Virus record (IMG/VR): IMGVR_UViG_3300005573_000073
Coordinates: 29,706 to 93,705 of that record
Direction: 5' to 3' (one strand)
Source of the DNA: a virus
DNA: 64,000 nt
The notes under the pieces are model-generated. The model was not told where the DNA came from, did no database searches, and worked only from the letters and a program-made list of their open reading frames with translations. Both the position numbers and the translations under genes were made by a program. Shown here in pieces: positions 30,526 to 54,144 of this stretch. Every line of letters starts with the position of its first letter. The stretch's first letter is position 1.

Positions 30526-30866
30526 TATTTTCTAACCCATCCACGTGGCGAATATTCAATTTCATTATGGCAATGTCTGCAATAAAAATGTTTTTCTCCA
30601 GTGAAGACATCACGTTCAAAAAATATCCAATATGGAGTTAACATTTCATCACACCATGGACAAATCTCCATAATAAACGGTGGAGGAACGTTACATCCTT
30701 TTCCCTGTTTTTCAAAATCTTGATTATATCCGACTTGCGGTCCAGTTGCAGTTTCTCCACTTGAACCCTGTAAATCTTTATTTTCTTTATCGTCAGCATT
30801 CGGTAAATCTTTATTGTCTTTTTTTTCAGGCATTTTACGCCAAGCCTTCCCATGTTCGGAATCCAA
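30522..30866 (-). CDS. Small Zn-ribbon protein
   Basis: CPWC...CRHC; coupled to the upstream gene (likely start MPEKK). Confidence 0.55.
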   Translation of the reverse strand: MDSEHGKAWRKMPEKKDNKDLPNADDKENKDLQGSSGETATGPQVGYNQDFEKQGKGCNVPPPFIMEICPWCDEMLTPYWIFFERDVFTGEKHFYCRHCHNEIEYSPRGWVRKY

Positions 30867-38481: not shown

Positions 38482-38832
38482 TCATGCAACATAACGATTT
38501 ATCACTTCAAAAAGAAAATATTTGAAACCTTTATATATAATGCAATAAGTATAAGCGTCTTTAAAATCTGAAATAAAATAATCTAACAAATCATGCAATC
38601 CATGCAGTTTTTGTTTTAATCTTGAATCAACAAAAAGTTTTGTAAAGAATCTTTCTATTAGCATATGAATTAATTCGTGTGCTAGTGTGTAGTATTGCAT
38701 ATGCAAAGTTTTTGACGCATTGATAAGTATTAAACGTAGTTTATGGTTAGTTAAACCATAATAATCAACATGACTAAATTTCACAAGTCTAACCTTATAA
38801 TTTAAACTGAATCCAATTTTGATTTTTTGCAT
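38482..38832 (-). CDS. HExxH zincin-like metallopeptidase domain protein
   Basis: YYGLT...ILIN...TLAHELIH. Confidence 0.65.
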   Translation of the reverse strand: MQKIKIGFSLNYKVRLVKFSHVDYYGLTNHKLRLILINASKTLHMQYYTLAHELIHMLIERFFTKLFVDSRLKQKLHGLHDLLDYFISDFKDAYTYCIIYKGFKYFLFEVINRYVA

Positions 38833-40014
38833 TTTTTTAACCTTCTTTTTTTGTTTCTCTAATAATATGTTTCGTAAAAATAGCCTAAAAATGTTCTGTT
38901 ATGGTATGGAAAAACTGAAAAATTGCAAAAATTAGCAAAGTTTTCCGAAAAGCATGGAAAAATTACCATACTTTTTTATTCGTATTTGTGTATATCAACA
39001 TCTACACTAAAACCAAAAAAAGACTTGTAGGTATGGCAACAATTGAAAAAGAAGGCGAAATTAAGCGTTTAAACTGTATTTCGAAGTTTTGATTATGGTA
39101 TACACTTTTTTTTAAGGCGAAATTAAGCTTCTTTTACAAAATTTTGCAAACAACTTCGAAGTAGCATGGAAAAATACCATGCTTTTTACTTCGAAGCTAT
39201 TTATATAGTAGATTTATATATCCACTCAAGCCTAAAAATCTAACTCATATACACATCTATTTTTCCATGATTTTATGTATTTATATAATCATGCTTTAAC
39301 TCCAGAAAAAAAATAGCTTCGAAATAGCCTTATTTTTTGCTAAAAGTATGCTTAAAAAAAGCATGGAAATATACAGTTTATATAAACTTTTCTCTGTTAT
39401 TGTAGTTTTTAGCTACACTTAATCACTAAAAGTTAAACTTTAAATGAACACTTTTAAACTGTATTTTTGTTAAACAATTTCTTATGATTATATAAAGCAT
39501 GTCAAAAATTAGACATATCAAAAAATAGACATGTTCGTAATTTAACATATAGTCAAAAAGATTGCATGGAAAAATTGAGATAAGTTTAAAAAGCTACACA
39601 CTATTTCATTTTTGCACTTGCACACATCTAGAGAAAAACTTTAACAAAAATCAGAAGATAAGAGAAATTAAAAATCTAGTGTTAAGTATGCTAAAAACTA
39701 GATATATCACAAAAAGGATATATCAAAAACTAGATATATCCATAATAGCAAAAATTGGTTTAACGAAAAGTTAAACTCTAGTGATAACCAGCGGTTGCAC
39801 CACCAAAACTACATAGCGACTTTTTCCGAAATTTTTCTGGTGAATTTTTCCAGAAAAATTTCAAAGATTTTTTAACTAATTGTTTAAAATTTTGCGGGAT
39901 AGGGAGTTTTTTAAAAGTGTTGATTATGTTTTTGCATGTGTTTTTCGTAAAGTTTTACGCTGAAATATCTTTTGCAAAATTGACAATATTTCATTAATTC
40001 TTTTTCCATAATCA

Positions 40015-40302
40015 TCATCTAAAAATAAATGGTTGTTTTGGTTTATCCTTTACTTTTTTAACGACTTCTTCATAAAGAAAATAATAATCAAGACGAAAAT
40101 TCGAATCGATAACTTTTCCCCTAAAAGACGTTTCGTAAATTTCAAGAATCTCAACAATTATTGGTTTATCTGGAAAGGAAATTCTCCCGTAATTGTTACC
40201 ATTTTTAATTAAAACTAAATCTCCTTCTTTCAGTTGAAGTTTTTTACCATTAACCATTATAGTTTTCTTTGTCATAATCATTCCTTCACTATCTAAAAAC
40301 AA
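40015..40302 (-). CDS. FxFR-tailed small protein (SH3/KOW-like body)
   Basis: Ends KPKQPFIFR; LKEGDLVLIK. Confidence 0.7.
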   Translation of the reverse strand: MFLDSEGMIMTKKTIMVNGKKLQLKEGDLVLIKNGNNYGRISFPDKPIIVEILEIYETSFRGKVIDSNFRLDYYFLYEEVVKKVKDKPKQPFIFR

Positions 40303-40552
40303 ATGGTTCTTTCTTGTTGTTAAGGAATTTTTCCCAACGTAAATGAATAATCTTTACCTTTTGGTATTGTAGCCTTTCCTTTTCCCAAATGCTACTCCAT
40401 TCGCTAAAACATTTATTGCAGATTTTATAAGTTTTTTCTGGAATTGCCGAATACCAATTGTCGTCAATAATAACCAATTCGTTTTGCACATCACAACGTC
40501 TTTTACATCTATCACAAATATACATACTTATCACTTTTTTAGTTTGCAACAT
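40289..40552 (-). CDS. FxFR-tailed Zn-finger protein (DNW subfamily)
   Basis: CDRC...DDNW...CNKC; ends KKEPFVFR. Confidence 0.75.
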   Translation of the reverse strand: MLQTKKVISMYICDRCKRRCDVQNELVIIDDNWYSAIPEKTYKICNKCFSEWSSIWEKERLQYQKVKIIHLRWEKFLNNKKEPFVFR

Positions 40553-42209
40553 TAAGGTAAATGTCGATAAACGCTTCTGGTAAATCTCTAAAGTCGCTGA
40601 TTTTTGTTCTTTTAATTCCCTTCACTTCTTTAGCAAAGTTTTCAAGATTATAACATTCACTAAACCCCACGAACATTATTTCAATTCCACTTTTAACGCA
40701 TTGTTCAATAACTTTTTTAGCTTCTCCTTCATCACTAAAACAAAAATCACTAGCGATAACTAGAATCTTGCGTCTATCTTCCCTTATACCATTAAACATC
40801 TTGAGAAAACTTTCAATTAAATCGTGAATTCTTGTTCCACTTGCATTAACGCTGATGTTTGGAATTCTTGCACGTGTTGTGTAAAACTGTTCAAAGAAAG
40901 TTTTAATCTTCTGTATGTCTTGAGCAAAAACTCCAACTGCAAAACTATAATCATCAACGAAATTGCCGAAAACTTCGTTAAAAATCGTTGTTATACGCAA
41001 AGCGGTTGTTTTATTGACGCTTCCACTAAAATCGACAAGAAAAGCAATGTTAATTTTCTCTTTTTCAAGTCTTAAATCGTTGTGAACATAAACGTTGCTA
41101 ACTTGTTTTCTTAAGCTATTCGTATAACATCTAGTTAAAATGTTGCTCATTATTCTTCCACGTTTTTGGTAAATGTCCTTCTGTATTTTAGGTTTCAAGT
41201 TTAACTTGAGTTTTGACAGTAATCTGTCAATTTCTGGCTTAACTTCTCCCACTAAATTTTCATAAGCTAAAATGTCTGGTTCTGGCGAAGGTATTTCTTC
41301 TCCCGTTCCCATTCCCGCACTAACATTCTTCTTTAAATCTTGCTCTAATTTTTGTCCTTCCTGCTGTTCCGCTTCAATTTCAGCTTTAATCAGTTTATCC
41401 AACGCTTTTTGAAGTTGTTTACTGATATTACCGTTAATTTTTCCCCCGTCAAAAGCTAACATCAGTTGATTATAAGAATCTTCGCTTTCTTGTTGTTGTT
41501 GGTTATCTTCTTTTGCAAAAGGCTTTATAATTTCGTAAATCTGTTTATAAATGCTTAAAATTTCAATTCGTAAACGTGAATACTTAACTTTCTCCAATAA
41601 ATCAAGACATTCATCGATAGCTTCATTCTCTTTAGTTTTAAGATTATTTCTTATTGGAGTTATATCAACGTTATAAAGTGTTTTTCCACTTATTGCCCCA
41701 ACAATTAAACTTGTCGTTGAAATTGGATTCTTCAACGTGTCTTGCATGTTGGTTTCTAACATGTCTTTAAAAATCAATTCCTTCAAAACTTGTCTTTTAC
41801 CCAAGTCGAATCTAAATCTGTTCTTGCCATAATAATTAACTCTTTTATCTTCCCCAATATTGATTATTTCCCGTGCTAAAAATGGAAATTCTTTGTTATT
41901 ATTTTGTAATTGCGAAACCCAACTTTCAAAATATTTAGCTAAAGGTTTACTTAAAACATAATGTAAAGCTTCATGCATAAGGCTACTATCAAGTATTTTT
42001 TGTGCGATGCGTTCATTATTTTTAGCGTAGTCTGGATAAGCATTAGTTGTTAAAGTTATAGTGTTAGTTGCATAATCAAAACTGCATGTTTTAGCTTTTT
42101 CGTCATATTGCAATTTTAATTGCTTATCCCGTGTAATAGCAATTGCAATGTTTCTTAATTCTTCAAGATTTTTGCTGAAGTTTTCTTTAACGCTTTTTTT
42201 CTTTTCCAT
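40539..42209 (-). CDS. VWA-domain protein with N-terminal HExxH domain (CobT-like MoxR partner)
   Basis: MHEALH...NIGEDKRVN; MIDAS DFSGS, GT, ASD. Confidence 0.85.
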   Translation of the reverse strand: MEKKKSVKENFSKNLEELRNIAIAITRDKQLKLQYDEKAKTCSFDYATNTITLTTNAYPDYAKNNERIAQKILDSSLMHEALHYVLSKPLAKYFESWVSQLQNNNKEFPFLAREIINIGEDKRVNYYGKNRFRFDLGKRQVLKELIFKDMLETNMQDTLKNPISTTSLIVGAISGKTLYNVDITPIRNNLKTKENEAIDECLDLLEKVKYSRLRIEILSIYKQIYEIIKPFAKEDNQQQQESEDSYNQLMLAFDGGKINGNISKQLQKALDKLIKAEIEAEQQEGQKLEQDLKKNVSAGMGTGEEIPSPEPDILAYENLVGEVKPEIDRLLSKLKLNLKPKIQKDIYQKRGRIMSNILTRCYTNSLRKQVSNVYVHNDLRLEKEKINIAFLVDFSGSVNKTTALRITTIFNEVFGNFVDDYSFAVGVFAQDIQKIKTFFEQFYTTRARIPNISVNASGTRIHDLIESFLKMFNGIREDRRKILVIASDFCFSDEGEAKKVIEQCVKSGIEIMFVGFSECYNLENFAKEVKGIKRTKISDFRDLPEAFIDIYLNVAN

Positions 42210-42453
42210 ACTCTATTCGCCCCTTACTAAAATTTACATCTTTCATTAATTGTGATGCTTTCTTGAATCTCCATGATGTTTGTGGATAATTCAAAAATTT
42301 ATTGCGAATAACTGATTCATAAGCTAACTTTATTAATTGTTGTCTAAAACTTTTTTTATCTGGAAATTGAGTATTAAGTTTAACTAAATCAACTTCTGGA
42401 GTAATAAGATGATATAATTCACGATTCGTGAGAATTGTTTTTTGATTCTTCAT
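42187..42453 (-). CDS. Hypothetical protein
   Basis: First gene after the promoter at 42491-42525; AGGTGA RBS. Confidence 0.55.
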   Translation of the reverse strand: MKNQKTILTNRELYHLITPEVDLVKLNTQFPDKKSFRQQLIKLAYESVIRNKFLNYPQTSWRFKKASQLMKDVNFSKGRIEYGKEKKR

Positions 42454-42526
42454 CAGTTCAAGCCTTCACCTTAACTTAAACTCATTTGGCTTATTTAAGC
42501 ATTTCGTTAATTTTCCATACAACCTT

Positions 42527-42796
42527 TTATCTAAAAACAAATGGTTTCACTATTTTTCTTTTTTCTTTACCTTTTTTAACAAAGTTTTGCCAATAAGCAT
42601 GGACAATATCTCCCGATTCTAACTTTAATTTTTTCTCTTTAAAAATTTTTTTCCACTCGTCAAAACAATTATGACAAACAGCATAAGTATTTACGTCATT
42701 CCATACATCAGTATTCCAATTGTCAAAAACATATGTGAATTCTTCGACTTTTTTGTGGCATACATCACACTTTTTTAAATAATCAATTACGTTCAT
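42527..42796 (-). CDS. FxFR-tailed Zn-finger protein (DNW subfamily)
   Basis: CDVC...FDNW...CHNC; ends KIVKPFVFR. Confidence 0.75.
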   Translation of the reverse strand: MNVIDYLKKCDVCHKKVEEFTYVFDNWNTDVWNDVNTYAVCHNCFDEWKKIFKEKKLKLESGDIVHAYWQNFVKKGKEKRKIVKPFVFR

Positions 42797-42809
42797 TTTT
42801 AATCATCTC

Positions 42810-43022
42810 TTATCTAAAAACGAATTTAAATTGTTGCTTTGCAATAATGAAAACATTATACTTTAACCCTAAAATGTTCTGTTCTTCCTTTGGTAATTGA
42901 GAGAAAAAAGTCTTTAAACAGTTATTACACATAAAACAAGAATAGTGAAGTTTTCCATTAATAATTTCTTCAACATAATATACCGCTTTCGAATTACAAC
43001 GTTTACAAAACATTTTAATCAC
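42810..43022 (-). CDS. FxFR-tailed Zn-finger protein
   Basis: CKRC...CNNC; ends QFKFVFR. Confidence 0.7.
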   Translation of the reverse strand: MIKMFCKRCNSKAVYYVEEIINGKLHYSCFMCNNCLKTFFSQLPKEEQNILGLKYNVFIIAKQQFKFVFR

Positions 43023-43172
43023 ATCACAAAAAAAGGGAAAATTTTAACGTATATAATCACTTGTTTTCTTCCGTTCCACGTAGCATTTTATTAGTCGGCG
43101 AATATTTGCGTTTATCTGCATTATTTCTTTCTCAAAGTCTTTCAATAAATCTTCCATGTTTTCTCCCTTCTT

Positions 43173-43826
43173 TTAAGTTGTTTTGGTTTCTTTTTCTTTT
43201 TGTTCTTGTTGTTGAAGAATCATTGCTTCAACTTGGCTTATCTTGTCGCTTAAAATTTCCGCTGTGTCTTGTATTTCTTGTTGTGCATCTTGGCTTTTTA
43301 ATTCTTGTGCTAATTCGTTTACTATTTCGTACGCCTTTTTACAACGCCATAAGTTGCTTTTGCTCATTCTCTTTTCTGTTAATGCGTTATCGCAATATGC
43401 GATATGTTCCATGCAGAATTGTAGTAAAAACTCTATTTTTTGTGTTTCGTAATCTTGAAAGCCTTCTTCTGTTGTTAGTATTGGAATTATTCTTATTCGT
43501 CTATCCACGTTATCAAAGTTTTTGCTTTTCAAGTCGCTTTTAATTTCTTCTAGTAAAACTTTCGCTGTTTCTAATCTATCTTTTGCAATAAGCCAAGATG
43601 ATTCTAGGTGTCTTGTTGCCTTAATCTTAAATTTAAGCGTGAAAAACAGTTTATTTCTGATTTGCTCTGCATATTTGTTTCTTTCTTTAATTTCTTGTCT
43701 TTCTTGTTCCGTTGCGTTTTTAGGAATCTTAATTTTACTGTTTAAGTCATACTCAATAACGTATAGTTCTTCACCGAAAATTCCCATTTTCTTTAATTCT
43801 TCTTTGTCTAATATTAATTCTGTCAT
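43173..43826 (-). CDS. Hypothetical protein coupled to the MoxR ATPase
   Basis: TAATG coupling; N-terminal YVIEYDL...HLESSWL is weakly Cas2/VapD/PaaX-like; helical C-terminus. Confidence 0.6.
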   Translation of the reverse strand: MTELILDKEELKKMGIFGEELYVIEYDLNSKIKIPKNATEQERQEIKERNKYAEQIRNKLFFTLKFKIKATRHLESSWLIAKDRLETAKVLLEEIKSDLKSKNFDNVDRRIRIIPILTTEEGFQDYETQKIEFLLQFCMEHIAYCDNALTEKRMSKSNLWRCKKAYEIVNELAQELKSQDAQQEIQDTAEILSDKISQVEAMILQQQEQKEKETKTT

Positions 43827-44710
43827 TAGTCATCTTCCCCCTTTTCTTTTCCTTCTTCCTTTAACTTTTCTATTTCGGGCAGTTTTGTCGATTCTTCATA
43901 TAGTCGTTGGAACATACTTTGCTCTTCTTCTGGATAAAGGCTTTTTGCAATTTCGATTATTTCTTCTTCTGCAAGATTGTCTTTCCACATTTTAGCATAG
44001 TTTATAAGGTTTCCCGTTGTTAATGGAGTGCGAAGTTTTCCTTCCCGATAAAGCCTTCTTGTCTTATTGGCTAACTCAACGAATTTGCGTGAAAACTCAT
44101 AATTTCCCGAAATTTCCTTAATTAGCTTTGTTTCTTGGGTTATCGAAAGATAATCAACGATTATGCCTTCAAATCTTCTCATAGTTGCGATATTGGTTAT
44201 GAATGTTCCGCTGTAAGACGCTTTTTCACATGGATTATAGCTTATGATTATATAGTGTTTTGCGGTTCTTTCGAAAGTTTTTTCCAATTCTGGTATATAG
44301 ACATTTCCCCTAAAATCTGCAAGACTTTCTATAAGGCTAATTACTCCCGATTCAGCGTAGTTGAAACCATCTAAATATAATATTGCACCTTCCTTTGCTT
44401 CAAGCCACTTTGTTATAATGCCTTTTCTTACAGTTGAATTGCCTTCTTTTAGTGTGTCACATGCCAATAAATCCCAGCGACTTATATCACGTGTCAAGAC
44501 AATTTCGAATAATTGCATGTTAAGTTTTTTAGCTATTGCATAAGCTAAAGTTGTTTTTCCCGTTCCCGTTTCGCCCACAAGACGCAAATTTCCCACGTTT
44601 TTAAGTATTGCTAGTGCTTTTCCCATATAGTTTTTTTCATCTACAAACACAACGTTTTTAACTATTTTTCCGCCAATTTCACTTATTTTTGTTTCTTTTG
44701 TTTCAGACAT
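43826..44710 (-). CDS. MoxR/CbbQ/CobS-type AAA+ ATPase
   Basis: GETGTGKT, LYLDGFN (variant Walker B), SYNP...YSGT...ATMRRF. Confidence 0.85.
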   Translation of the reverse strand: MSETKETKISEIGGKIVKNVVFVDEKNYMGKALAILKNVGNLRLVGETGTGKTTLAYAIAKKLNMQLFEIVLTRDISRWDLLACDTLKEGNSTVRKGIITKWLEAKEGAILYLDGFNYAESGVISLIESLADFRGNVYIPELEKTFERTAKHYIIISYNPCEKASYSGTFITNIATMRRFEGIIVDYLSITQETKLIKEISGNYEFSRKFVELANKTRRLYREGKLRTPLTTGNLINYAKMWKDNLAEEEIIEIAKSLYPEEEQSMFQRLYEESTKLPEIEKLKEEGKEKGEDD

Positions 44711-45753
44711 TTTACATCACTTTGATTTAAAGAGTTGTTTAACTCCTTTATAAGTATTTCGTTATTTTTCCATGCAATCTTTTTTCATCATCATTATTAA
44801 TATGGTTTATTACATTAATGTTTAAGCTAAAAAAGTCAAACCTGTTGCCTGCTTTTTGAAAAACAAGCTGTTTCCTGCCCGATTTTGACAAACAAAGCCT
44901 GAAAAAGCACGGAAAATCCAACCGATTAGACCAGATAAAAATTTTAAACAATTCGTTAAATCCATTCTTCCAAAAAGATTTAGGGTAAAACTTTTAGTAA
45001 AAAAATTCGCAAAGTTTCCAAACCAAATAAGCCCAATTTAAGCCCCTTTTCGCCAAAGTATGTTCAACACAAATACACATTCCCCCTTTTTAAAAAAGAA
45101 GGCTAAATCAAGCCCCTTGGCTAATTTAAGTCGCTTTTGGTTATTGTAGGTAGACGTTTCACAACACCTAAAATTTTAAGTAATTCGTTAAATTTTTAAT
45201 GGTTATGAAGATGGTTAAAAATGCACGTTGCTTCACGTTCTTTTAATGTTTTTTGTGAATTTTTGTTTGTGGTTTTTCCATGATTTTTCCATAGTTTCTG
45301 AAAGTTTCACGAAATTGTTTGTGTTGTTTGTGGGACAACGTGAATGGTGTTATGGGAAAAAAGTATGTTGGAACGTTGAATCACGTTCAAGTTTAAGTAA
45401 TTCGTGAATTTTTCTGCGAAACATTTAAATATTTAAGTTTATATTTTGTAGTTAAGGTTTAAATAATGTTTCAAAAATTTAAACATGTGAACAGAAAATT
45501 GAACGAAAACCAAGTTCGACAAAAATTCGAAAAGTTAAACTTTTAGTTGAACTGTGGGTTGGACAAAAAAACTACATAGGCGATTTTTTTCGGAAATTTT
45601 TTTGGAAAATTTTTTCGGGTTTTTTGGCAGTTTATTTTTGGTTTTTAACTGATTGTTTAAAATTTATAATTTCAAAAATTAATAACGAGCAGGTCGGTGC
45701 TTAAAACAAAAAATAATTTGGAATCAAAATTTTTGGCGAAAAAATTAAACAAT

Positions 45754-45850
45754 AAAAATTTTAAAGGGCAGGGGATTTATGCGAGTGATGTATTTTTCAC
45801 ATTCCCATTCAGTATCACAGTATTTTTCTGGTAACATCACACGCACATTA
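45754..45850 (-). ncRNA. Candidate small hairpin RNA A (or 30-aa micropeptide at 45837-45745)
   Basis: Own BRE-TATA at 45871-45888; 11/12-bp closing stem (45780-45791 with 45834-45845); C-rich then oligo-T tail. Confidence 0.35.
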
Positions 45851-45927
45851 CATTTTAATATCAAAACAACTATTTAAATTTTACGGTTTTTATGAAAAAA
45901 AATAAAAAGAGAAAAAAGGGGGGTTTT

Positions 45928-46341
45928 TTAGCGGACATAATGTATTGAAAAGTCTTCGTGGTCGAACTTGTTAAGCTGGTCTAGTGAACCGAAGTATTGG
46001 TCGAATGAAATGTGTTTGACTTCGTGTTTCGCCATGTTTCCAATGTTTAAATAGTTTTGAACTATTGTTACGTCTGATTTGTCTTTGAAGTAAACCCAAA
46101 GTTCAACATTGGAAACTTTGTCATCTGTGTTTCGTAGGTCAAACTCTATATGTAACATTCCATTTGCACAAGTAATGTGTTCTGTAACGTTTTCAACCGT
46201 TACTACTGATGATTCTTTTTGTTTAGTCCAGAAACCAATGCCATTTGTCGGTAACGTGAAGAAGTAGCCACTACAGGCAGTTGCAGTTGCAACAACTATT
46301 AATGATAGCAAAGCAATTAACACGAATTTTTTCTTATTCAT
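45928..46341 (-). CDS. Secreted / membrane-anchored protein
   Basis: Signal peptide MNKKKFVLIALLSLIVVATATAC followed by an Ig-like beta domain. Confidence 0.65.
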   Translation of the reverse strand: MNKKKFVLIALLSLIVVATATACSGYFFTLPTNGIGFWTKQKESSVVTVENVTEHITCANGMLHIEFDLRNTDDKVSNVELWVYFKDKSDVTIVQNYLNIGNMAKHEVKHISFDQYFGSLDQLNKFDHEDFSIHYVR

Positions 46342-46519
46342 TTGTTTTCACCTCTCTAACTTTTGCATAGTTTCTTTTATCATATTTTGGGTTCATGTTT
46401 TGTAGCCATTTTTTCTTTTCCATTACAGCTTCTTCTTTTGTTGTATGGATAGACACTAAATCACCTAAAACAAACACGCCATATCTTGCTTTCTTATTCA
46501 TTTTTTTCTCACTTGACAA
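46334..46519 (-). CDS. Hypothetical protein
   Basis: Follows the promoter at 46538-46571. Confidence 0.5.
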   Translation of the reverse strand: MSSEKKMNKKARYGVFVLGDLVSIHTTKEEAVMEKKKWLQNMNPKYDKRNYAKVREVKTNE

Positions 46520-46572
46520 TTAATGTTTTAATTGTTGTTTATAAACTTTGCTGTATTTTCCCATGCAACCTT

Positions 46573-46815
46573 TTATCTAAAAACAAATTTTACTTTATGT
46601 TTCGCCTTTAAAAATTCTCGCCAAACACTTTTTCCTTCAACATACATTTTAGCGTTTTTCTCAAAAAACTTAAACCATTCTTCTACACAAATAGGACATA
46701 AATAAATGTAAATGGAAGCAGAATTAATGTCTTTGTAAGGTTTAAATTTTCTTTTACATTTTTGACATTTATATCGTTCACATTTGTGTTTTTTAAATCT
46801 TGCTATGGCAACCAT
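46573..46815 (-). CDS. FxFR-tailed Zn-finger protein
   Basis: CQKC...CPIC; ends KHKVKFVFR. Confidence 0.75.
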   Translation of the reverse strand: MVAIARFKKHKCERYKCQKCKRKFKPYKDINSASIYIYLCPICVEEWFKFFEKNAKMYVEGKSVWREFLKAKHKVKFVFR

Positions 46816-46824
46816 TTTTTAACA

Positions 46825-47316
46825 TCACCTAAAAACGAATGATTCTTTTCTAGTCTTGATTTTAATTTTGTGTCTTATTATATAATCAAACAGATTATTA
46901 CAACCCAACATATTATCTTCACCATCTCCTTCTTCACTACAATTTACTATGTCACCAGAATCAATAACTATCCCAGAATCAATAATCTCTCTGTTTCGTG
47001 TAACAAGAATTTCAAACCAATTGTTAGCTTCCCAATGTCCACATAATATTAAATCTTCAGTTAATTTTCCATCTTCACCATTACCTTCTTCAAACATAAA
47101 ATATTCAGTATCACTTTTCCAAATATCTATATCGCCAGAAGTAAAAAGCGAAATTTCTATATCACCTTTCGTAACTAATAAAATTGGTTCACTACTACCG
47201 TATTCATACCAAAACGTGCAATCATCTTCTTCAACATTCATTAAATTATTCACGCAAATTTTCCAATTCCACTTTTTCAAAATGTTTAACGCTTCTTCTC
47301 TATATGATTTTACCAT
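46825..47316 (-). CDS. FxFR-tailed acidic protein
   Basis: D/E-rich body without CxxC; ends KTRKESFVFR. Confidence 0.7.
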   Translation of the reverse strand: MVKSYREEALNILKKWNWKICVNNLMNVEEDDCTFWYEYGSSEPILLVTKGDIEISLFTSGDIDIWKSDTEYFMFEEGNGEDGKLTEDLILCGHWEANNWFEILVTRNREIIDSGIVIDSGDIVNCSEEGDGEDNMLGCNNLFDYIIRHKIKIKTRKESFVFR

Positions 47317-48161
47317 AATGGTTTCACATCTCCAATAAATCTTGATTTTCCCTTATGTTCAAATGGTTTACCTATTCCTTCAAACTTTGGAAATTGAATT
47401 AAATATGCATGATTTTCAGCTTTATCGTAAAAGATAAATTCAGATATGCCTTCTTCAAAGTTTGTTTTTAAAGTTTTCACTTTGTCTGCAACTTGTGAAC
47501 CGAACATTCTACTGATTTTTTGCACGTCATTATCGCCACTTGTTCTTCCAATAAGAAAATACCTTCTCCGTTCAACTACTCTGGTATCAACATCAGCTAA
47601 TCGCTGTGTTAAACCAATAATCACCATTCTAAAGTTTGTGCACTCACAATACAACTTATATAAGAATCTTCCACTCTTCAAGCCTAAACCATTCCTTCCA
47701 AGAACATTCTGAATTTCTTCAATCACATAAAAGTTTACAAACGGAACAACACCATTTAAACTATTCTTTAATTCGTGTTTATGCATAAAGTCCCGATACA
47801 TCAAATCCGCAATTACATTTTTAACATCTATAATGTCAGCTATTTCATGTAAATTCACAATTAAGTCTTGTTCTTCAAACGGTATAACACTTGTTTTAGC
47901 ATAATCAACAAAAGGAATACTGTCAAACTTAAACTTCCAATTTAACGTATCATCGAAGATTGTAAGTTTATATTCGTTTGTAGAATGTTTCGGAGAATCC
48001 CGTATTCGCCTAGCAATCCACATTACAGCATTAGTCTTGCCCGATTGATTTGTTCCCGAAACAATAAGTCCCCCGCTTTCTTCGATTTTCTTTATTATTT
48101 CGTCTAATTTTTTAATAAAGTCGGGAGAGATTTGTTTCGGTTCAGATTTTGGTTCAGACAT
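47310..48161 (-). CDS. P-loop ATPase, HerA/FtsK-like
   Basis: VSGTNQSGKT, YVIEEIQ, GLTQRLADVD. Confidence 0.75.
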   Translation of the reverse strand: MSEPKSEPKQISPDFIKKLDEIIKKIEESGGLIVSGTNQSGKTNAVMWIARRIRDSPKHSTNEYKLTIFDDTLNWKFKFDSIPFVDYAKTSVIPFEEQDLIVNLHEIADIIDVKNVIADLMYRDFMHKHELKNSLNGVVPFVNFYVIEEIQNVLGRNGLGLKSGRFLYKLYCECTNFRMVIIGLTQRLADVDTRVVERRRYFLIGRTSGDNDVQKISRMFGSQVADKVKTLKTNFEEGISEFIFYDKAENHAYLIQFPKFEGIGKPFEHKGKSRFIGDVKPLW

Positions 48162-48168
48162 TTTTTCT

Positions 48169-48390
48169 TCACTTTGAAAGTATTTCTACCGCTATAATCA
48201 AGTTTACAATCCATAAAACCCATAAAATTGCTGAAACATAAAGAAAACGAAGAACATCATTTAGAGAGTTAATAACGTTTATGGAAGCAAAAACATTATT
48301 TATTATTAAAGATTGCGTGTAGAAACAATAGTATGTTAATATTAAACATTCGACTACAACGATTATTTTTATTGCCAATTTCAACTTCAT
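48169..48390 (-). CDS. Two-helix membrane protein
   Basis: Two hydrophobic segments; follows the promoter at 48431-48465. Confidence 0.6.
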   Translation of the reverse strand: MKLKLAIKIIVVVECLILTYYCFYTQSLIINNVFASINVINSLNDVLRFLYVSAILWVLWIVNLIIAVEILSK

Positions 48391-48465
48391 TTTTTATCAC
48401 TAATCCTAATCCTAGTTATGTCATGTTCCAATATATAAAGTTTACTGTTTTTTTCCATACAATCT

Positions 48466-48714
48466 CTATCGAAATATGAAATTACTTCTTTGTTTGTCTG
48501 TATCTTCAATTTGTATAAGATGATGACAATCATAATTACAGTATTTACGTTTAACTTTTATTGCTTTTACAACTCTATATTCTTTCGTGTTAGTATAAGG
48601 ATTAATGGATTCTTCAACTAAAAACGTGCTACCTATTTCATTTGCATACCAATAACTTTGACGACTTGCTTTTAAAATTTTAACTTCAAACCTCGAATTA
48701 CTCACATTTTTCAC
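48466..48714 (-). CDS. FxFR-tailed small protein
   Basis: Ends KQRSNFIFR, coded TTC ATA TTT CGA TAG. Confidence 0.7.
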   Translation of the reverse strand: MKNVSNSRFEVKILKASRQSYWYANEIGSTFLVEESINPYTNTKEYRVVKAIKVKRKYCNYDCHHLIQIEDTDKQRSNFIFR

Positions 48715-48965
48715 CTAAACACAAATGGTTTCTTATCTTTCAAGTTTCCAATAAACATTTCCCATGTTGGATTAACGGGATTTTTTTGACCCTCTATCCA
48801 AGTGTATAACTTTTCAATTCTTTCATGATTATCGTCAAAGAAGGCACACCATTTTTTCCAACATGAATCACATAATTCGGCACTAATAGTCATATCATCT
48901 TTACGGGCTACAATTTTTTTTCCGCATTTTGAACAATTTCGTTCTATAAAACCATTTCGCAACAT
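48711..48965 (-). CDS. FxFR-tailed Zn-finger protein
   Basis: CSKC...CDSC; ends KDKKPFVFR. Confidence 0.75.
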   Translation of the reverse strand: MLRNGFIERNCSKCGKKIVARKDDMTISAELCDSCWKKWCAFFDDNHERIEKLYTWIEGQKNPVNPTWEMFIGNLKDKKPFVFR

Positions 48966-48977
48966 TTAATTTTCACT

Positions 48978-49169
48978 TTACAAATGTTTTGGAAAATGGT
49001 ATATTACTAGCCAGAATATTCCATACATTATTGGGGCAACTATACCAATGCTAATTAACCAAGCTAAAATTTTTACTGCAACTCCACCTTTTAAACAATT
49101 AGGGCAAAGCGTAGCTTTTTTATCTGTTGTTTCAAACTCTTTACCACATTTAAAACAAATTTTCTTCAT
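48978..49169 (-). CDS. Zn-ribbon protein with C-terminal membrane helix
   Basis: CFKC...CPNC then a hydrophobic segment. Confidence 0.6.
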   Translation of the reverse strand: MKKICFKCGKEFETTDKKATLCPNCLKGGVAVKILAWLISIGIVAPIMYGIFWLVIYHFPKHL

Positions 49170-49439
49170 TCTTTTTTCACTCCCTTATTTCTTTGCCATC
49201 TTTAAAATTAAATTACTTTATTGAAATATATAAACTTTACGCAGTTTTTCCATTCTATCTTTTTCCCATTCTATCTTTCTATCGCTGTCTCCATAAATTT
49301 TTTCCATGAAACTCCTTCTGTAAATTTTAAGTAATTAGTTAAAAATCCATTTCAAAAGGTTATGTAAAGCCCCGTTAAATTTTAAATTTTAAAAAAAATG
49401 TTAAAAAAAAAATAAAAAAGAGTTGTGTTTTGGTTTATT

Positions 49440-49580
49440 TTAAAATTGCAGTATTACAGTATCTTTAGGATTTACTTCGACTTCAGCTAATTTTCGCTTT
49501 GCACTTACACTTGCGTTTTTCTTAATGTTGTCTAAATCTTTTACTGCTGCAACATCTGTTTGCCAAATTTCAACTTTCAT
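49440..49580 (-). CDS. 46-aa protein downstream of the KaiC-like ATPase (not in track)
   Basis: MKVEIWQTDVAAVKDLDNIKK...TVILQF with GAGGTGA RBS. Confidence 0.55.
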   Translation of the reverse strand: MKVEIWQTDVAAVKDLDNIKKNASVSAKRKLAEVEVNPKDTVILQF

Positions 49581-49606
49581 TTTTTTCACCTCTTTATTAG
49601 TTTAGT

Positions 49607-50611
49607 TTAGTTTGGTTTTGTTTCTGATAAACGAACTAGTCCTTCTGGAGTTATAATGTATTTTTTGTATCGTGCATCATATTTGCAAATGCGATTTTTC
49701 AGTATTCTGAAGAAGTAAACGACTTCGCCTTGTTTTGCGTTAGTATCTAACTTAATTGTGCTATCCCATGATGACAACCGTTTATAATCCATTTCTATAA
49801 CTATGTCTGCAATGTGGCTTAAAGCTAAACCCCCTGCCAATGCTAAACTGTCAGCTTCATCTATAGCCCTTTGATTAACCATTAATGAAGTAATACCATG
49901 CAGTTGAAAATACTTCATTAATTCGCCTAGTCTATATTTGATTTGTCCACGTGTATCTTCAAGCAAAGTTAAACTGTCAATTGCAACAAAATCAATTTTT
50001 CTTGTTTCAATTAAGAAGCGGAGTGTTGAAACAAAGTTTGACCATTCTCTTAATTCAGCATTAGAAACAGCGTCAAGCACAAACAAGTTATCAGCAATTT
50101 TCTCCCATTCTAACTTTAAAATTTTTGCCCTTTCTTTAAGTCTTGATTCTAAATCGTATCTTGGTGTTTCTGCACGAAAAACTTCTTCGCTTGTAACGAA
50201 AGCCACTTTTACGCCTTTATTTGCAAGTTGTAAACAAATTTCTTCAATTAGTAAAGATTTTCCGCTGTTTGGCAATCCACTTAACAATGCACAAGAACCA
50301 AATGGAACCCCGTCAATTGCTTTATCGTTTTCGTCTATGAACATTCCATCGATGAAAGTGTATGTTTTAAATCCTAACAATTGTTTCTTTTCCGCAGTTT
50401 TAGAAACAGTAATTATGTTTTTGTTTTCTTTTTGTTCTTCTATTGGTTTTTTAAACGGTTCTGTTGCCAATGTCCATTCGTTGTTGCCGTTTTGTGCTTG
50501 TTGAATCATTGTAGCCATGCTTTTCGCAAACACGTCAGCTAACTGTTGAATGTTAATTTGGTTTTGGTTATTTTGGTTTTGTTTGTTATTGTTTGGTTTT
50601 GTTTCAGACAT
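49607..50611 (-). CDS. KaiC-like RecA-superfamily ATPase (single domain)
   Basis: GLPNSGKS, FVTSEE, VAIDSLT, SHIADIVI, RILKNR. Start moved to MSETKP at 50611, downstream of the promoter at 50646-50678. Confidence 0.8.
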   Translation of the reverse strand: MSETKPNNNKQNQNNQNQINIQQLADVFAKSMATMIQQAQNGNNEWTLATEPFKKPIEEQKENKNIITVSKTAEKKQLLGFKTYTFIDGMFIDENDKAIDGVPFGSCALLSGLPNSGKSLLIEEICLQLANKGVKVAFVTSEEVFRAETPRYDLESRLKERAKILKLEWEKIADNLFVLDAVSNAELREWSNFVSTLRFLIETRKIDFVAIDSLTLLEDTRGQIKYRLGELMKYFQLHGITSLMVNQRAIDEADSLALAGGLALSHIADIVIEMDYKRLSSWDSTIKLDTNAKQGEVVYFFRILKNRICKYDARYKKYIITPEGLVRLSETKPN

Positions 50612-50645
50612 TTTTATCACGATTAAAAGAAAATACTTTTGGGAC

Positions 50646-50678
50646 TTATAAACTTTACTGTTTTTTTCCATGCTACCT
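50646..50678 (-). promoter_or_regulatory. Example of the extended promoter AGRTWGYATGGAAAA + BRE + TATA
   Basis: Minus strand AGGTAGCATGGAAAAAAACAGTAAAGTTTATAA; 10 similarly spaced copies found. Confidence 0.7.
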
Positions 50679-50885
50679 AAAAACAAAATGTTGTTTTTGT
50701 TTACCGACAAGTTTTTTGAAGCAATCTGGACATAAATATAAACAATTGAAGGGATTATTTTTATTGTAATATATATATTCAGAAGTTTTAAAACAATGCA
50801 AACAAATATATGGAGTTTGAGAATAAAGCAATTCGTAACCATCTTCCATAATTTTTGGTTTTTTCTTGTTCATCATTTTAATCAC
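50673..50885 (-). CDS. FxFR-tailed Zn-finger protein
   Basis: CLHC...LCPDCFKKLV; ends KQKQHFVFR. Confidence 0.75.
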   Translation of the reverse strand: MIKMMNKKKPKIMEDGYELLYSQTPYICLHCFKTSEYIYYNKNNPFNCLYLCPDCFKKLVGKQKQHFVFR

Positions 50886-51091
50886 CTAAATATAAAAGTT
50901 TCTTTCTTCACAAGTTTTTTGAAGCATTTAGGACACAACCAATTATATTCAGAATAATGTTCATGCCTACCTTTCCTACGATAAATATCTTTAGAATAAC
51001 AACCGCAAATTAAACAGATAAATGCATCTTTGTTTTTTGGAGAAAAAGAAGAACAATGAATATATTCATAATCATCTTTTTTCATCATCAT
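50882..51091 (-). CDS. FxFR-tailed Zn-finger protein
   Basis: CLIC...LCPKCFKKLV; ends KKETFIFR. Confidence 0.75.
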   Translation of the reverse strand: MMMKKDDYEYIHCSSFSPKNKDAFICLICGCYSKDIYRRKGRHEHYSEYNWLCPKCFKKLVKKETFIFR

Positions 51092-51097
51092 TATTAA

Positions 51098-51502
51098 TCA
51101 CCTAAATATAAATGGGCTACTTTTTACTTTAACTTTTACTTCAAACTCTTTATCACAATTTCCACAATAATAAATAATTCCGATAATTTCTCCATGCTGA
51201 TTATACTTTAAGTTTCTTCCTTCTATGCCTTTATATATGCTTTGGCGACCACAAATTGGACATTTAACAACATCACGTTTAAGCGTTTTACTTTGAAAAA
51301 GAACACAGCAAAGAGCAAAAAACTTCTTTACAGTTATGTCGTATCTTTTGAATCCGTCTGGATTATTTGGGCATTTATAGTAAAGATTTCCATCTTTATA
51401 GAAAATCTGTTTTATAGAACAGTAATCACATAAAACTTTTTCTTTTGGTAAACCACGTGTTTTAGTGGAAAACACGTTTTTCTTTTCTATTTGTGTTGTC
51501 AT
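51098..51502 (-). CDS. FxFR-tailed Zn-finger protein
   Basis: CDYC, CPIC, CGNC; ends KVKSSPFIFR. Confidence 0.75.
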   Translation of the reverse strand: MTTQIEKKNVFSTKTRGLPKEKVLCDYCSIKQIFYKDGNLYYKCPNNPDGFKRYDITVKKFFALCCVLFQSKTLKRDVVKCPICGRQSIYKGIEGRNLKYNQHGEIIGIIYYCGNCDKEFEVKVKVKSSPFIFR

Positions 51503-51509
51503 TGTTTAA

Positions 51510-51806
51510 TCACCTAAAGATAAATTTTTCTTTCAGCTTTTTAAATGGAAAAGGATACCAAGCCATATTTTTCCAAACGAAAGTAAAAGCCCTTTCATCA
51601 ATCCATAACGGAACAAAAACGTTATGGCACATTTCACAATCATACCTTTTAGATTCCATTTTGCAAAAACTAAATATTTCATTTGGTAAACCATGTGGTC
51701 TAGTGAAAAACACATTGTCATGTAAATGGATACGTGTTGATTTGCAAGATGGACATTTTTTAATATTGCGAAACACAATTTTACTCATATAATCACCTAA
51801 ATACAA
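51510..51806 (-). CDS. FxFR-tailed Zn-finger protein
   Basis: CPSC...CEMC; ends KLKEKFIFR; likely start MSKIV. Confidence 0.75.
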   Translation of the reverse strand: MYLGDYMSKIVFRNIKKCPSCKSTRIHLHDNVFFTRPHGLPNEIFSFCKMESKRYDCEMCHNVFVPLWIDERAFTFVWKNMAWYPFPFKKLKEKFIFR

Positions 51807-52005
51807 AGTTTTGTTTAATGTTCATTCGTGAAGGACATTTTGGCGAAATTGGTAGAAATATTGCTTTGTGAAAACCACTTTCATGAAAACAACGTGGACA
51901 ATAACAAAAATCAATACATGAAATTCTTACCTTAATCTTACATTCACCATAACAATAGAAAACTTTACCACAACTATTACAAACACGTTTTAAACGTTTA
52001 TTCAT
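51793..52005 (-). CDS. FxFR-tailed Cys-rich protein
   Basis: CNSC...CYGEC...CYCPRC; ends IKQNFVFR. Confidence 0.75.
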   Translation of the reverse strand: MNKRLKRVCNSCGKVFYCYGECKIKVRISCIDFCYCPRCFHESGFHKAIFLPISPKCPSRMNIKQNFVFR

Positions 52006-52246
52006 TTTTTTTCACTTCCCTAAAAATAAAAGTTGTTTTCTCTTTCTCCATTCGTGGACATTTCTTTAATTCTTTAAGTGAAGAAGAAGCAAGATTAGGA
52101 AGAATATACTTATGAAAACAATCACTACAATAACAATGTGTTTGAAGTGAAATTCTTATTTTATTTTTACATTCACCATGACAATAAAATCTTCTTCCGC
52201 AATTAGTATTGCCACAAACACGTTCTAACAATTTATTCTTCGTCAA
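51998..52246 (-). CDS. Cys-rich paralogue with sub-terminal FIFR
   Basis: Paralogue of 51793-52005; ends TTFIFR-EVKKNE. Confidence 0.7.
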   Translation of the reverse strand: MTKNKLLERVCGNTNCGRRFYCHGECKNKIRISLQTHCYCSDCFHKYILPNLASSSLKELKKCPRMEKEKTTFIFREVKKNE

Positions 52247-52252
52247 TTTCCA

Positions 52253-52501
52253 TCACCTAAAAACAAACTTTACTTTTTCTCCTTTTCTCTTTAAAAACTT
52301 CAGAAAAGTTTTATGAACAATATTCTTTTCCAAATTATCATCTAACTTGTTTTCAGACCATATTAAAGACCATTTTGAAAAGCAATTGCGACAAAGATGA
52401 TAAGTTTTCCAATGTTTACAATCATTCCAATTATCATATATCTTAACCAATTCACCTTCTCTCGTTAGCATTTTACATCTATCACATTGTCGCATTTCCA
52501 A
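52253..52501 (-). CDS. FxFR-tailed Zn-finger protein (DNW subfamily)
   Basis: CDRC...YDNW...CRNC; ends GEKVKFVFR. Confidence 0.75.
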   Translation of the reverse strand: MEMRQCDRCKMLTREGELVKIYDNWNDCKHWKTYHLCRNCFSKWSLIWSENKLDDNLEKNIVHKTFLKFLKRKGEKVKFVFR

Positions 52502-53139
52502 TTCACTAAAAATATTAATGTCAAAACAACTATAAAAACCTTTCTAAAAATTACCATGAAATCTTTTATGCCTTCGCATTAACGTCCATCGCATTCAGCC
52601 CAAATTAGCCTTCTTTTTTAAAAAGAAACCCAAATTAACCTTCCCGCCAAAAAACAACCCGCAAAGTCCATTCAGAACAATTTTAAATAATTAGTTAAGC
52701 AGTTTTATCAACTTATATTTAAACTTTTTGCGAAAACTTTAAAACGGGTAAAACCAAAAAACTGTTAAACAATTCATTAAAATTATTAAACCATAAAAAA
52801 CTACCTCACCTCCGTCTTCCTTTCCTGTTTGCTTTCCCTTTTTAAATAATTACTTAAAATTTACCTACTCTTTAACTACTCCTTAACTACTCTTTAACTA
52901 ATTAACAAAAAAATATTTTTTTAATTTAAATAATTGTTGAAACCCCACAGAAAAACTACATAGAACCTCGCCCAGCAAAAAAATTTCCGAAAAAACTCAA
53001 AAAAATTTCGGAAAATTTCCAGAAAAAATCATGAAAAATTTTGGGAAAAAAATTATAAAAAATTTGCCAAGATTTTCAAAAAAATTCAAGAAAAACTTAA
53101 TTCAAAAATCAAAAATTTTCCAAGCAAAAAATAATAAAG

Positions 53140-53265
53140 AAAAATTTTAGAGGGCGGGGGAGTTGCGTGAGACGGATGCGTTGAACCAATGCAGTAAAAA
53201 GCTGTTCCATTGAATCTCGGCTAATGAAACGAAAGCATCGTGTTCAAAGGCTATCCGTCTCAAAA
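53140..53265 (-). ncRNA. Candidate small hairpin RNA B
   Basis: Own BRE-TATA at 53285-53302; perfect 10-bp closing stem (53168-53177 with 53253-53262) plus inner stems; same C-rich/oligo-T tail as RNA A. Confidence 0.45.
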
Positions 53266-53301
53266 AAGTTATTAGACAAACAACTATTTAAACTTTACGG
53301 T

Positions 53302-53763
53302 TTATCGAAATATAAACGTGTTACGTTCAAATTTTAATTCTTGTCCTTCAAGTGCAATTTTAATTACTATGTTATAAGCTGGAGATTCTAACTGTGTAAA
53401 GAAATTAAGAAGCTTATTTTTTATTTTCCGCATTTTTCCATGGTCATCTTCTAAATAAATTTCTTCACAGATAACAGCTACATTCTTGTTGTTATTATTG
53501 TCGAATTTTGGCATTTTAATAATGATTTTCTTTTGGTAACCATTATAATTAAGCAGGTTACTATAGTAGATTTCACCATGATAAACTACTTTTTGATTGT
53601 TCACAGTCATTTTTTTACATAGAGCAAAAATTTCACTGTAAAGAACAGCGTTAATGTTGGTGAATGGATAAGAAGGTGAAATATAAAATCTAAATTTTAC
53701 GTTTGAACAATCTGCTGTTGTTGCAGTCCATCTTGCGTTTTTTGCTGTTGACATTTTAATCAA
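53302..53763 (-). CDS. FxFR-tailed protein
   Basis: No CxxC; ends FERNTFIFR, coded TTT ATA TTT CGA TAA. Confidence 0.7.
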   Translation of the reverse strand: MIKMSTAKNARWTATTADCSNVKFRFYISPSYPFTNINAVLYSEIFALCKKMTVNNQKVVYHGEIYYSNLLNYNGYQKKIIIKMPKFDNNNNKNVAVICEEIYLEDDHGKMRKIKNKLLNFFTQLESPAYNIVIKIALEGQELKFERNTFIFR

Positions 53764-53838: not shown

Positions 53839-54144
53839 TTACCGAACATAATCAAAATCGCTTTCAGGCAAATCTGGACTTTTCTCTTCTCTTTCTTCTT
53901 CTTCATTATCTGTTTTTTCAAAATGTTTAATTTCAATAATGTTTTTAAGCCATAAATCAATCATGAACTGTTTCAATTGGTGAAGATAATTATCGTCATC
54001 TTGTTCATCAACACTTTTTTTGTAAATGTTTGAAAGGAAAAATTGAATTGTAACATCATGCATTACTGTTTCTGGATGTCCTTTCTGTTGGATTTCTTTT
54101 TTAAGTTCACAACTTTCAATCCAATCGTCAAACTCATACTTCAT
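53839..54144 (-). CDS. Acidic hypothetical protein
   Basis: 101 aa, ends DFDYVR. Confidence 0.55.
   Translation of the reverse strand: MKYEFDDWIESCELKKEIQQKGHPETVMHDVTIQFFLSNIYKKSVDEQDDDNYLHQLKQFMIDLWLKNIIEIKHFEKTDNEEEEREEKSPDLPESDFDYVR

Follow-up and report, generated by a model that had tools for sequence, protein, structure and literature searches.

A shared C-terminal Phe-[Ile/Val]-Phe-Arg tail on unrelated small proteins of a predicted archaeal virus as a candidate virus-specific docking tag

A run of small genes in a 64,000-nucleotide stretch of viral DNA (hereafter, the window: bases 29706-93705 of the single 93,705-bp contig IMGVR_UViG_3300005573_000073) encodes proteins with diverse bodies that share one C-terminal tail, Phe-[Ile/Val]-Phe-Arg (F[IV]FR). 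Since the first ~122 bases of the contig are repeated at its end, the assembly is complete, and the resulting 93.7-kb genome is, judging from its sequence, that of a tailed virus of an archaeon. Our preferred reading, to which we give a probability of roughly one half, is that the tail is a virus-specific docking tag for one putative, co-evolving reader. That is, a free C-terminal (Pro)-Phe-[Ile/Val]-Phe-Arg on a flexible, Lys/Arg-rich linker, carried by at least 17 small, soluble and mostly basic zinc-ribbon proteins, would be read, together with its free carboxyl end, by a single reader protein, and this one reader would handle the whole fast-changing set of accessory proteins.

One tail on unrelated protein bodies in two viruses

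A six-frame scan of the window, counting open frames of at least 30 residues that end in F[IV]FR and a stop codon, returned exactly 15 such frames, all on the minus strand between positions 40015 and 53763 (Table 1), and none in the rest of the window. The same 15 genes, with the same coordinates and the same confinement to this stretch, had been listed by a first-pass annotation that a model made from the letters of the window and their open reading frames (ORFs). A 16th motif gene (51998-52246) reads FIFR and then continues for six residues; its DNA resembles the usual AGG-TGA end of a tail gene with a 4-nucleotide insertion, GAAG. A 17th tail gene, which encodes a zinc ribbon ending CFVFR-TAA, lies beyond the window at genome positions 5236-5478. 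Motif carriers make up 17 of the ~129 ORFs of the genome, or about one gene in eight; given the genome's own amino-acid frequencies, the chance of an F[IV]FR ending is 1.4e-5 per gene, and only ~0.002 such endings are expected in 129 ORFs.

Table 1. Tail genes of the window and candidate reader or processor genes of the virus (window positions unless marked otherwise).
Feature	Position	Strand	Residues	Body or domain	C-terminal end	Tail Arg codon and stop	Remarks
Tail gene	40015-40281	-	88	SH3-like, no Cys	KQPFIFR	AGA TGA	32-residue C2H2 mini-ORF next
Tail gene	40289-40552	-	87	Family A, zinc ribbon and two helices	KEPFVFR	AGA TAG
Tail gene	42527-42796	-	89	Family A	VKPFVFR	AGA TAA	Operon-final, then promoter-like element
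Tail gene	42810-43013	-	67	Distant family A zinc ribbon	FKFVFR	AGA TAA
Tail gene	46573-46815	-	80	Family A	VKFVFR	AGA TAA	Operon-final, then promoter-like element
Tail gene	46825-47316	-	163	Acidic (net charge -16), no relatives	ESFVFR	AGG TGA	Forms the SD of gene 46573
Tail gene	48466-48714	-	82	Non-zinc-ribbon, weak match to PHROG 17910	SNFIFR	CGA TAG	Operon-final
Tail gene	48711-48965	-	84	Family A	KKPFVFR	AGG TGA	Overlaps the GTG start of gene 48466
Tail gene	50673-50876	-	67	Family B zinc ribbon	QHFVFR	AGG TAG	Last before the promoter of the KaiC-like ATPase
Tail gene	50882-51091	-	69	Family B	ETFIFR	AGG TGA	Forms the SD of the next gene
Tail gene	51098-51502	-	134	Double zinc ribbon	SSPFIFR	AGG TGA	Forms an SD
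Tail gene	51510-51788	-	92	Zinc ribbon, no paralogue in the genome	EKFIFR	AGG TGA	Forms an SD
Tail gene	51793-52005	-	70	Family C, Cys-rich	QNFVFR	AGG TGA	Forms an SD
Buried-tail gene	51998-52246	-	82	Family C paralogue	TTFIFR followed by EVKKNE		Natural C-terminally extended variant
Tail gene	52253-52501	-	~80	Family A	VKFVFR	AGG TGA	Forms an SD
Tail gene	53302-53763	-	~150	Body without relatives	NTFIFR	CGA TAA	Then promoter-like element
Candidate reader	49607-50587	-		KaiC/RecA-like ATPase			Set inside the tail array
Candidate reader	43826-44710	-		MoxR/CobS-like AAA+ ATPase			Interleaved with tail genes
Candidate reader	40539-42209	-	556	C-terminal VWA; HEALH (HExxH-like) in the otherwise unmatched N-terminal 370 residues			Tail genes on both sides
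Candidate reader or processor	Genome 434-1486 (L124:434-1486)	-	350	Chymotrypsin-fold serine protease, GDSGSP
Candidate reader	38482-38832	-	116	IrrE/ImmA-like M78 metallopeptidase, HELIH, above the Pfam cut-off			Just downstream of the array

The bodies ahead of the tail fall into at least eight unrelated groups by BLAST: family A (40289, 42527, 52253, 46573, 48711 and, distantly, 42810), family B (50673, 50882 and, weakly, 51098), family C (51793 and 51998) and five singletons (40015, 46825, 48466, 51510 and 53302). Among the 15 tail proteins, 11 are CxxC proteins and four are not, and this count, given already in the first-pass annotation, was correct on re-examination. A Pro directly precedes the tail in 5 of the 15, and the 12 residues ahead of the tail are rich in Lys and Arg. 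All but one of 16 tail proteins are basic (net charges from +4 to +15), the remaining one being strongly acidic, and none of the 16 has a membrane segment, compared with three of eight tail-less small neighbours, which are membrane or secreted proteins. In the AlphaFold2 model of family A, a zinc ribbon and two helices are placed with confidence, and the nine C-terminal residues are coil (predicted local distance difference test, pLDDT, of ~56 for gene 40289). The tail is thus modelled as free and flexible and would be cytosolic. No fold matched the family A model at E <= 0.001, its best sequence match in the PDB is a generic archaeal small CPxCG zinc finger, and no structural relatives of the tail bodies were found past generic zinc ribbons. 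Taken together, the BLAST groups, the Lys/Arg-rich 12 residues and the modelled coil uphold the earlier description of one tail set on unrelated bodies behind a basic linker.

The simplest account of a repeated ending would be descent, with the tail as a relic of a single expanded paralogous family and without a function of its own. Eleven of the 15 proteins are indeed of the CxxC kind, and families A, B and C are true tandem paralogue groups. However, five or more bodies resemble none of the others, and the bodies are at 25-45% identity or past detection where the tail is exact. In a related virus (below), 31 singletons were found among 35 proteins, so that neither genome shows the similarity among all bodies expected of a single family, and homologous bodies in the two viruses have different tails. 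We regard inheritance alone as scarcely credible, the least probable of the explanations weighed here.

The related virus came to light when a family A profile from which the tail had been left out was run against 1.84 billion representative proteins. Apart from near-identical copies, this search returned homologues ending KPFIFR, QTFIFR, KAFMFR and TTFVFR; more frequent were the endings ERVQFT, EKIEFT, ERVEFT, EKVVFT, EKVCFT, EKVIFT, EKVEFT, EKVNFD, EIVNFD and ELVVFI. One homologue is encoded on a metagenome contig of 151,787 bp; the part analysed spans 20 kb (locus L003; a second locus, L002, is identical). In these 20 kb, 36 small ORFs, most of them chained by 4-nucleotide overlaps, end [EVI][KRV]-V-x-F-[TD]-stop, and 35 of their proteins, stripped of the tail, form 31 BLAST clusters. 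Three body families are common to both viruses, each with its own virus's tail; for instance, the L003 homologue of the family A gene 48711 is encoded at 9986-10273, and homologues of family C on further contigs end KEKVIFT or REKVEFT, with KEKVEFT also seen among homologues of gene 51793. The only non-tail gene common to the genome and the 20 kb of L003 is the KaiC-like ATPase (43% identity).

Position -3 is free in the L003 tails (Gln in 19, Glu in 4 and Thr in 3, with His, Lys, Ser and Asn also present; hydrophobic in 3 of 36), and the operon-final L003 genes retain V-x-F with Asp as the last residue and a TAA stop. The common core of the two viruses reads as (Pro)-hydrophobic(-4)-x-Phe(-2)-x-COOH, and the tail is specific to the virus lineage, with homologous and unrelated bodies alike carrying the local version, which in the relative is [EK][KR]-Val-x-Phe-[Thr/Asp]. 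The first-pass annotation had staked its claim on homologues in related viruses not lacking the tail; homologues do keep a tail, but it is a different one. Searches of IMG/VR for tails as DNA patterns gave 0 matches to the L003 type and, for the FxFR type, at least 119 single chance matches and no second array; none of the ~120 unrelated IMG/VR loci obtained from the DNA pattern has two such tails.

Peptide and translation signals in the tail DNA

Within the 12 nucleotides of the tail, each variable site is either synonymous or switches between Ile and Val. The first Phe is TTT in 12 and TTC in 3 of the 15 in-window tails; the second position uses ATT, ATA, ATC, GTT, GTG and GTA; the second Phe (third tail residue) is TTT in 15 of 15; the Arg is AGA in 5, AGG in 8 and CGA in 2; and all three stop codons are used. 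Leu or Phe never occurs at the second position, though a T there would preserve the U-rich word. The L003 tails show a strict three-base codon periodicity as well, with Val(-4) encoded as GTN (all four codons present) and Phe(-2) as TTC in 17 and TTT in 19, the same as that genome's usage. For the tail in the window, the tallies of Phe, Ile/Val, Arg and stop codons agree with the synonymous variation described in the first-pass annotation.

Codon choice in both viruses also follows the needs of translation. AGG makes up 8 of the 15 tail Arg codons compared with 8% of Arg codons genome-wide, and seven of these eight read AGG-TGA and lie 0-13 nucleotides upstream of the next start. AGGTGA(T) is a Shine-Dalgarno (SD) word widely used in this genome, which the AGG-TGA(T) end of the tail matches over 6-7 nucleotides; therefore, part of the tail DNA is also constrained as a ribosome-binding site. 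Similarly, 33 of the 36 L003 tails end in A/T/G-TGA overlapping a start codon, with AAGGTG 8 nucleotides upstream. GTG is enriched at L003 Val(-4) (61% vs. 14%) because AAG-GTG is the SD, and the L003 Thr codons are ACA, ACT and ACG but never ACC (0 of 33), since the Thr codon and TGA form an overlapping ATG, TTG or GTG start.

These observations bring up the possibility that the tail is a by-product of gene junctions. That is, the conserved word would be the ribosome-binding site and stop-start junction of tightly packed, coupled mini-genes, perhaps serving as microhomology for gene swaps, inserted new genes would acquire the resident tail at the junction, and the peptide would merely be tolerated. 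Archaea are known to couple termination to reinitiation where genes overlap in this way (PMC6728339), and both viruses have stops at or very near the next start along with properly spaced SD words; the AGG-TGA here and the AAG-GTG...AC[AT]-TGA of the relative are junctions of this translationally coupled kind, which explains the choice among synonymous codons.

However, translation signals do not explain the conservation in full. The Phe codons lie outside the SD and start and contribute to ribosome binding in neither virus; TTT and TTC alternate freely, yet the amino acid never changes, and the conservation follows codon periodicity. Further, 7 of the 17 tail genes have no translational coupling downstream, six of them being followed by a promoter-like element and gene 40015 by a 32-residue mini-ORF. 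Tail genes at operon ends with a promoter-like AAAGTTTATAA after them pair AGA or CGA with a TAA or TAG stop and keep the Arg, and several operon-end tails of L003 likewise keep the peptide, with GAC before the stop. The U-rich word is also missing at tail-less junctions: T makes up 38% of the 9 nucleotides before SD words there, compared with 80% at tail junctions. Therefore, TTTRTNTTT is not a general ribosome-binding-site feature or enhancer in this genome. Finally, the identity among tail DNAs is too low, and the tail too short, for homologous recombination. Given this evidence, we consider the junction explanation unlikely.

Together, variation that is synonymous or confined to Ile/Val and the operon-end tails indicate that the amino acids are selected, with codons tuned where translation of the following gene calls for an SD. 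The peptide is the first object of selection, and the nucleic acid is also used. The earlier claim that selection is on the peptide and not on a DNA repeat stands, given also that the bodies are unrelated.

Two further nucleic-acid identities were tried and rejected. An oligo-T intrinsic terminator does not fit because a run of five T is found in 9 of the 15 in-window tails and is absent from words of the type seen in genes 48466, 53302 and genome 5236, because the 5-T runs are uncorrelated with operon ends, and because the L003 tails are not T-rich. A programmed frameshift at TTT-AGG would meet a stop within 0-3 codons in both shifted frames.

What might read the tail

The exact C-terminal peptide, the flexible linker, the unrelated soluble bodies and the concerted change of the tails within a genome together fit a docking tag with one co-evolving partner. 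The joint change of every tail in a genome suggests a reader that probably co-evolves with the tails and that is more probably a viral protein than a deeply conserved host hub. One tail, many bodies and one reader, as first proposed from the window, is still the best reading of the data in our view, strengthened by the 36-gene relative and by the homologous bodies that carry the local tail.

Several points weigh against the docking-tag reading. Both tail versions embed translation signals, and part of their conservation is thus at the RNA level, while the uniformity of tails within a genome could come from recombination at gene junctions. The two tails may not share a reader or function, given that position -1 differs (Arg vs. 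Thr/Asp) and that position -3 is constrained here and free in the relative. Genomic context comes from this genome and 20 kb of the relative, and AlphaFold2 gives the family C model low confidence overall, with pLDDT below 50 for the last 24 residues and a disordered C-terminal third. Lastly, the version of this reading that specifies what the tag leads to, considered next, has as its sole basis analogy and gene content.

In that version, the one that we favour among those naming a destination, the tag would deliver to a proteolytic or unfolding machine, and the tail proteins would be either adaptors bringing bound host targets or clients cleared together; we hold this tentatively and, taken on its own, give it rather less than even odds. 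The virus encodes several candidate readers or processors of the tail (Table 1), including the serine protease, which matches PHROG 20754 'protease' with an E-value of 1.6e-43 and is encoded distant from the head module. Short C-terminal peptides are known to tie variable bodies or short-lived regulators to one machine, as in the ClpX-binding tail of SspB and the C-terminal degrons of phage regulators. The viral proteins resemble adaptors of AAA+ proteases such as SspB in combining a flexible linker with a short C-terminal peptide; they differ in that those are single bacterial proteins, as opposed to 17 to 36 unrelated proteins per viral genome in an archaeal setting. To our knowledge, no adaptor tail of the SspB type has been described in archaea.

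A more far-reaching proposal is that tailed viruses of archaea that belong to the MCM/PolB-encoding group carry an 'address code', one C-terminal tag common to dozens of small, rapidly evolving proteins that bind targets. It would plug these adaptors into one co-evolving machine, for which a protease or unfoldase is the most attractive choice, and each adaptor would deliver a different host protein for destruction. The tags of different lineages (FxFR, VxFT and VxFD) would then be mutually incompatible, and archaeal viruses would have a parallel to what F-box/PRANC proteins and E6 do. This is speculative, and we think it unlikely. Eukaryotic viruses offer precedents, and a further analogy for delivery to a proteolytic or unfolding machine, since the papillomavirus protein E6 (zinc-binding, with a PDZ-binding end) and the poxvirus ankyrin/PRANC proteins (with an F-box-like element) pair variable bodies with an unchanging C-terminal element through which a host machine is recruited. 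The likeness lies in small viral proteins with variable target-binding bodies and a constant short C-terminal element; the difference, besides the eukaryotic setting, is that PDZ ligands need a hydrophobic last residue. We know of no archaeal counterpart of this strategy, and searches of the full-text literature turned up neither these motifs nor any account of C-terminal tails shared among proteins of archaeal viruses.

The leading idea of the first-pass annotation was a host target, the 20S proteasome, which activators engage through a C-terminal hydrophobic-Tyr-any residue (HbYX) motif. An [Ile/Val]-Phe-Arg end would insert between host 20S alpha subunits and thereby open the gate or deliver targets. 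Archaea possess 20S proteasomes, and the predicted host is an archaeon. The tail also resembles the HbYX motifs of PAN, Rpt2/3/5, Blm10 and Cdc48 in lying at the extreme C-terminus, where the free carboxylate would be read along with it (the stop directly follows the motif in 15 of 16 in-window tails and 36 of 36 L003 tails), with an aromatic penultimate and, in the FxFR virus, a hydrophobic antepenultimate residue. Further, many HbYX endings have been catalogued in viral proteomes (PMC11475706).

The known contacts of HbYX are those of the carboxylate with Lys66, of the Tyr hydroxyl with the backbone of Gly19 and of the hydrophobic residue with a pocket of the neighbouring subunit (PMC10055539). 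The penultimate residue is always Phe and never Tyr (16 of 16 tails here, 36 of 36 in L003), and thus the Tyr hydroxyl, one of the three defining contacts, is absent. The antepenultimate residue, Ile or Val in the FxFR virus, is polar in 33 of the 36 L003 tails, mostly Gln or Glu, and the hydrophobic residue is conserved at -4 instead. Moreover, the viral proteins have a single tail each, as opposed to the multivalent rings of known activators, and a deeply conserved alpha-ring pocket would not predict tails that differ between virus lineages. The proteasome version is poorly supported; it keeps a small probability for the FxFR virus taken alone, and we consider it very improbable.

Another host groove that the tail might plug is that between beta4 and beta8 of an alpha-crystallin domain, with hydrophobic-x-hydrophobic-x-COOH as a mimic of the I-x-I/V motif of small heat-shock proteins (sHSPs). 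In Methanocaldococcus jannaschii Hsp16.5, an I-x-I motif within the last five residues drives assembly (PMC3638399), docking as an added beta strand in a hydrophobic groove. Pattern and position agree, as F-x-F here and V-x-F in L003 sit at the end of a flexible, charged linker, modelled as coil and often with Pro, and the virus comes from a hot spring. However, the viral Phe(-2) is invariant where sHSPs have Ile, Val or Leu, that is, an aliphatic residue at both positions, and no alpha-crystallin/HSP20 domain was found in the viral ORFs scanned. By this analogy, a mimic would be about as improbable as proteasome docking.

An address inside the virion is somewhat less remote. The tail could direct its small basic carriers to the procapsid, to be injected along with the DNA. 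In favour of this, they are small, for the most part basic, and hypervariable, and one short peptide follows a flexible linker in spite of unrelated bodies; a head module of the HK97 type is also present in the genome. Encapsulins share the HK97 fold and take up cargo through C-terminal loading peptides, and the T4 capsid-targeting sequence is likewise a short peptide on unrelated, small, often basic and fast-evolving proteins. However, the T4 tag is N-terminal and cleaved, and strict placement at the extreme C-terminus is atypical of encapsulin loading peptides. The array shows no link to the head module, lying among ATPase genes ~17 kb from the capsid gene, and the tail is found on no scaffold, protease, portal or other large protein among the 129 ORFs checked. 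We judge a capsid cargo tag improbable.

Several other identities of the peptide were rejected outright. A PDZ-binding motif does not fit, as it calls for a hydrophobic last residue and a conserved one two positions earlier; these tails finish in Arg (FxFR virus) or Thr/Asp (L003) and are conserved at -2 and -4, and the virus yielded no PDZ domain. The spacing does not match a PCNA-interacting protein (PIP) box, the L003 tail is insufficiently basic or hydrophobic for an amphipathic membrane anchor, and bodies that are folded zinc ribbons do not suit the leader or follower peptide of a ribosomally synthesized and post-translationally modified peptide.

If the docking-tag reading is true, this would be the first modular design in an archaeal virus in which a constant docking peptide is combined with variable bodies. 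In large viruses, small early genes mostly lack annotation; with a shared tag, at least 13% of such a virus's genes would gain one experimental handle, and finding the reader would give a function to the whole protein class. The lineage-specific versions of the tag would also constitute a natural test of co-evolution, and the overlaid peptide and ribosome-binding-site codes make a clean example of dual coding at synonymous sites, relevant to reading such tails elsewhere.

Genome, neighbouring genes and repeats

The genome carries tailed-virus genes for the large terminase subunit (TerL) and an HK97-like capsid protein, replication genes for an MCM helicase, a family B DNA polymerase (PolB) and an RNA ligase, and also a gene for a RadA/UvsX-like recombinase; inteins were detected as well. 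The host is probably an archaeon because the virus encodes MCM and PolB and has promoter elements resembling the B recognition element and TATA box (BRE/TATA-like). Atlas matches of TerL and MCM point to archaea and viruses broadly, with no narrower host pointer. The virus DNA was covered nearly completely in two hot-spring metagenome runs, and no RNA run was among the sequencing runs that contain it. Relatives in sediment runs matched 5-29% of the sampled words, which gives no pointer to habitat or to gene swaps. No useful relatives were found by searching GenBank phages with TerL and the KaiC-like ATPase, IMG/VR with the MoxR ATPase, the KaiC-like alignment, P0036 and P0010, or species genomes with the KaiC-like alignment and P0038.

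A few neighbouring genes deserve mention. The VWA protein and the MoxR/CobS-like ATPase make up a CobS/CobT-like pair, an arrangement found in many phages. The M78 gene is followed by a gene for a TFIIB/Yippee-like zinc-ribbon protein (38024-38440), and a repeated ACAAAAAAAGAAGGT ribosome-binding region is common to three local genes. A 283-residue P-loop ATPase (47310-48161, minus strand; Walker A GTNQSGKT), weakly like the large terminase subunit or FtsK/HerA-type proteins, would be a second packaging-type ATPase of the genome, and its gene overlaps the start of tail gene 46825. The mini-ORF directly after tail gene 40015 (39911-40009, minus strand) encodes a 32-residue, C2H2-type zinc finger that is tail-less and ends NQHF. 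Two unrelated proteins encoded on the minus strand, one secreted or membrane-bound (45928-46341) and one very acidic (53839-54144), end HYVR and DYVR, respectively; these Tyr-Val-Arg endings may be chance or a second, minor tail. Beside the tail array of the related virus, an SPFH/Band-7 protein is encoded at L003:18934-19830 (plus strand), for which no counterpart was found in the FxFR virus genome.

Elsewhere in the genome, PolB (genome 19175-21619, plus strand; L125:175-2619) has the PIP-box-like C-terminus KKLDTYFG, which suggests that the polymerase uses host PCNA, and LAGLIDADG or intein-splicing domains are present in two large minus-strand ORFs of the window (30835-33018 and 8133-9704). 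Finally, the word CATGGAAAAA and its complement TTTTTCCATG are dense in a non-coding stretch of ~1.1 kb at window positions 38840-39900. They also occur just after the stop codons at 42527, 46573, 48466, 50673 and 40015, and just upstream of the BRE/TATA-like AAAGTTTATAA elements behind several tail genes. These repeats could represent an operator regulon or an origin region.

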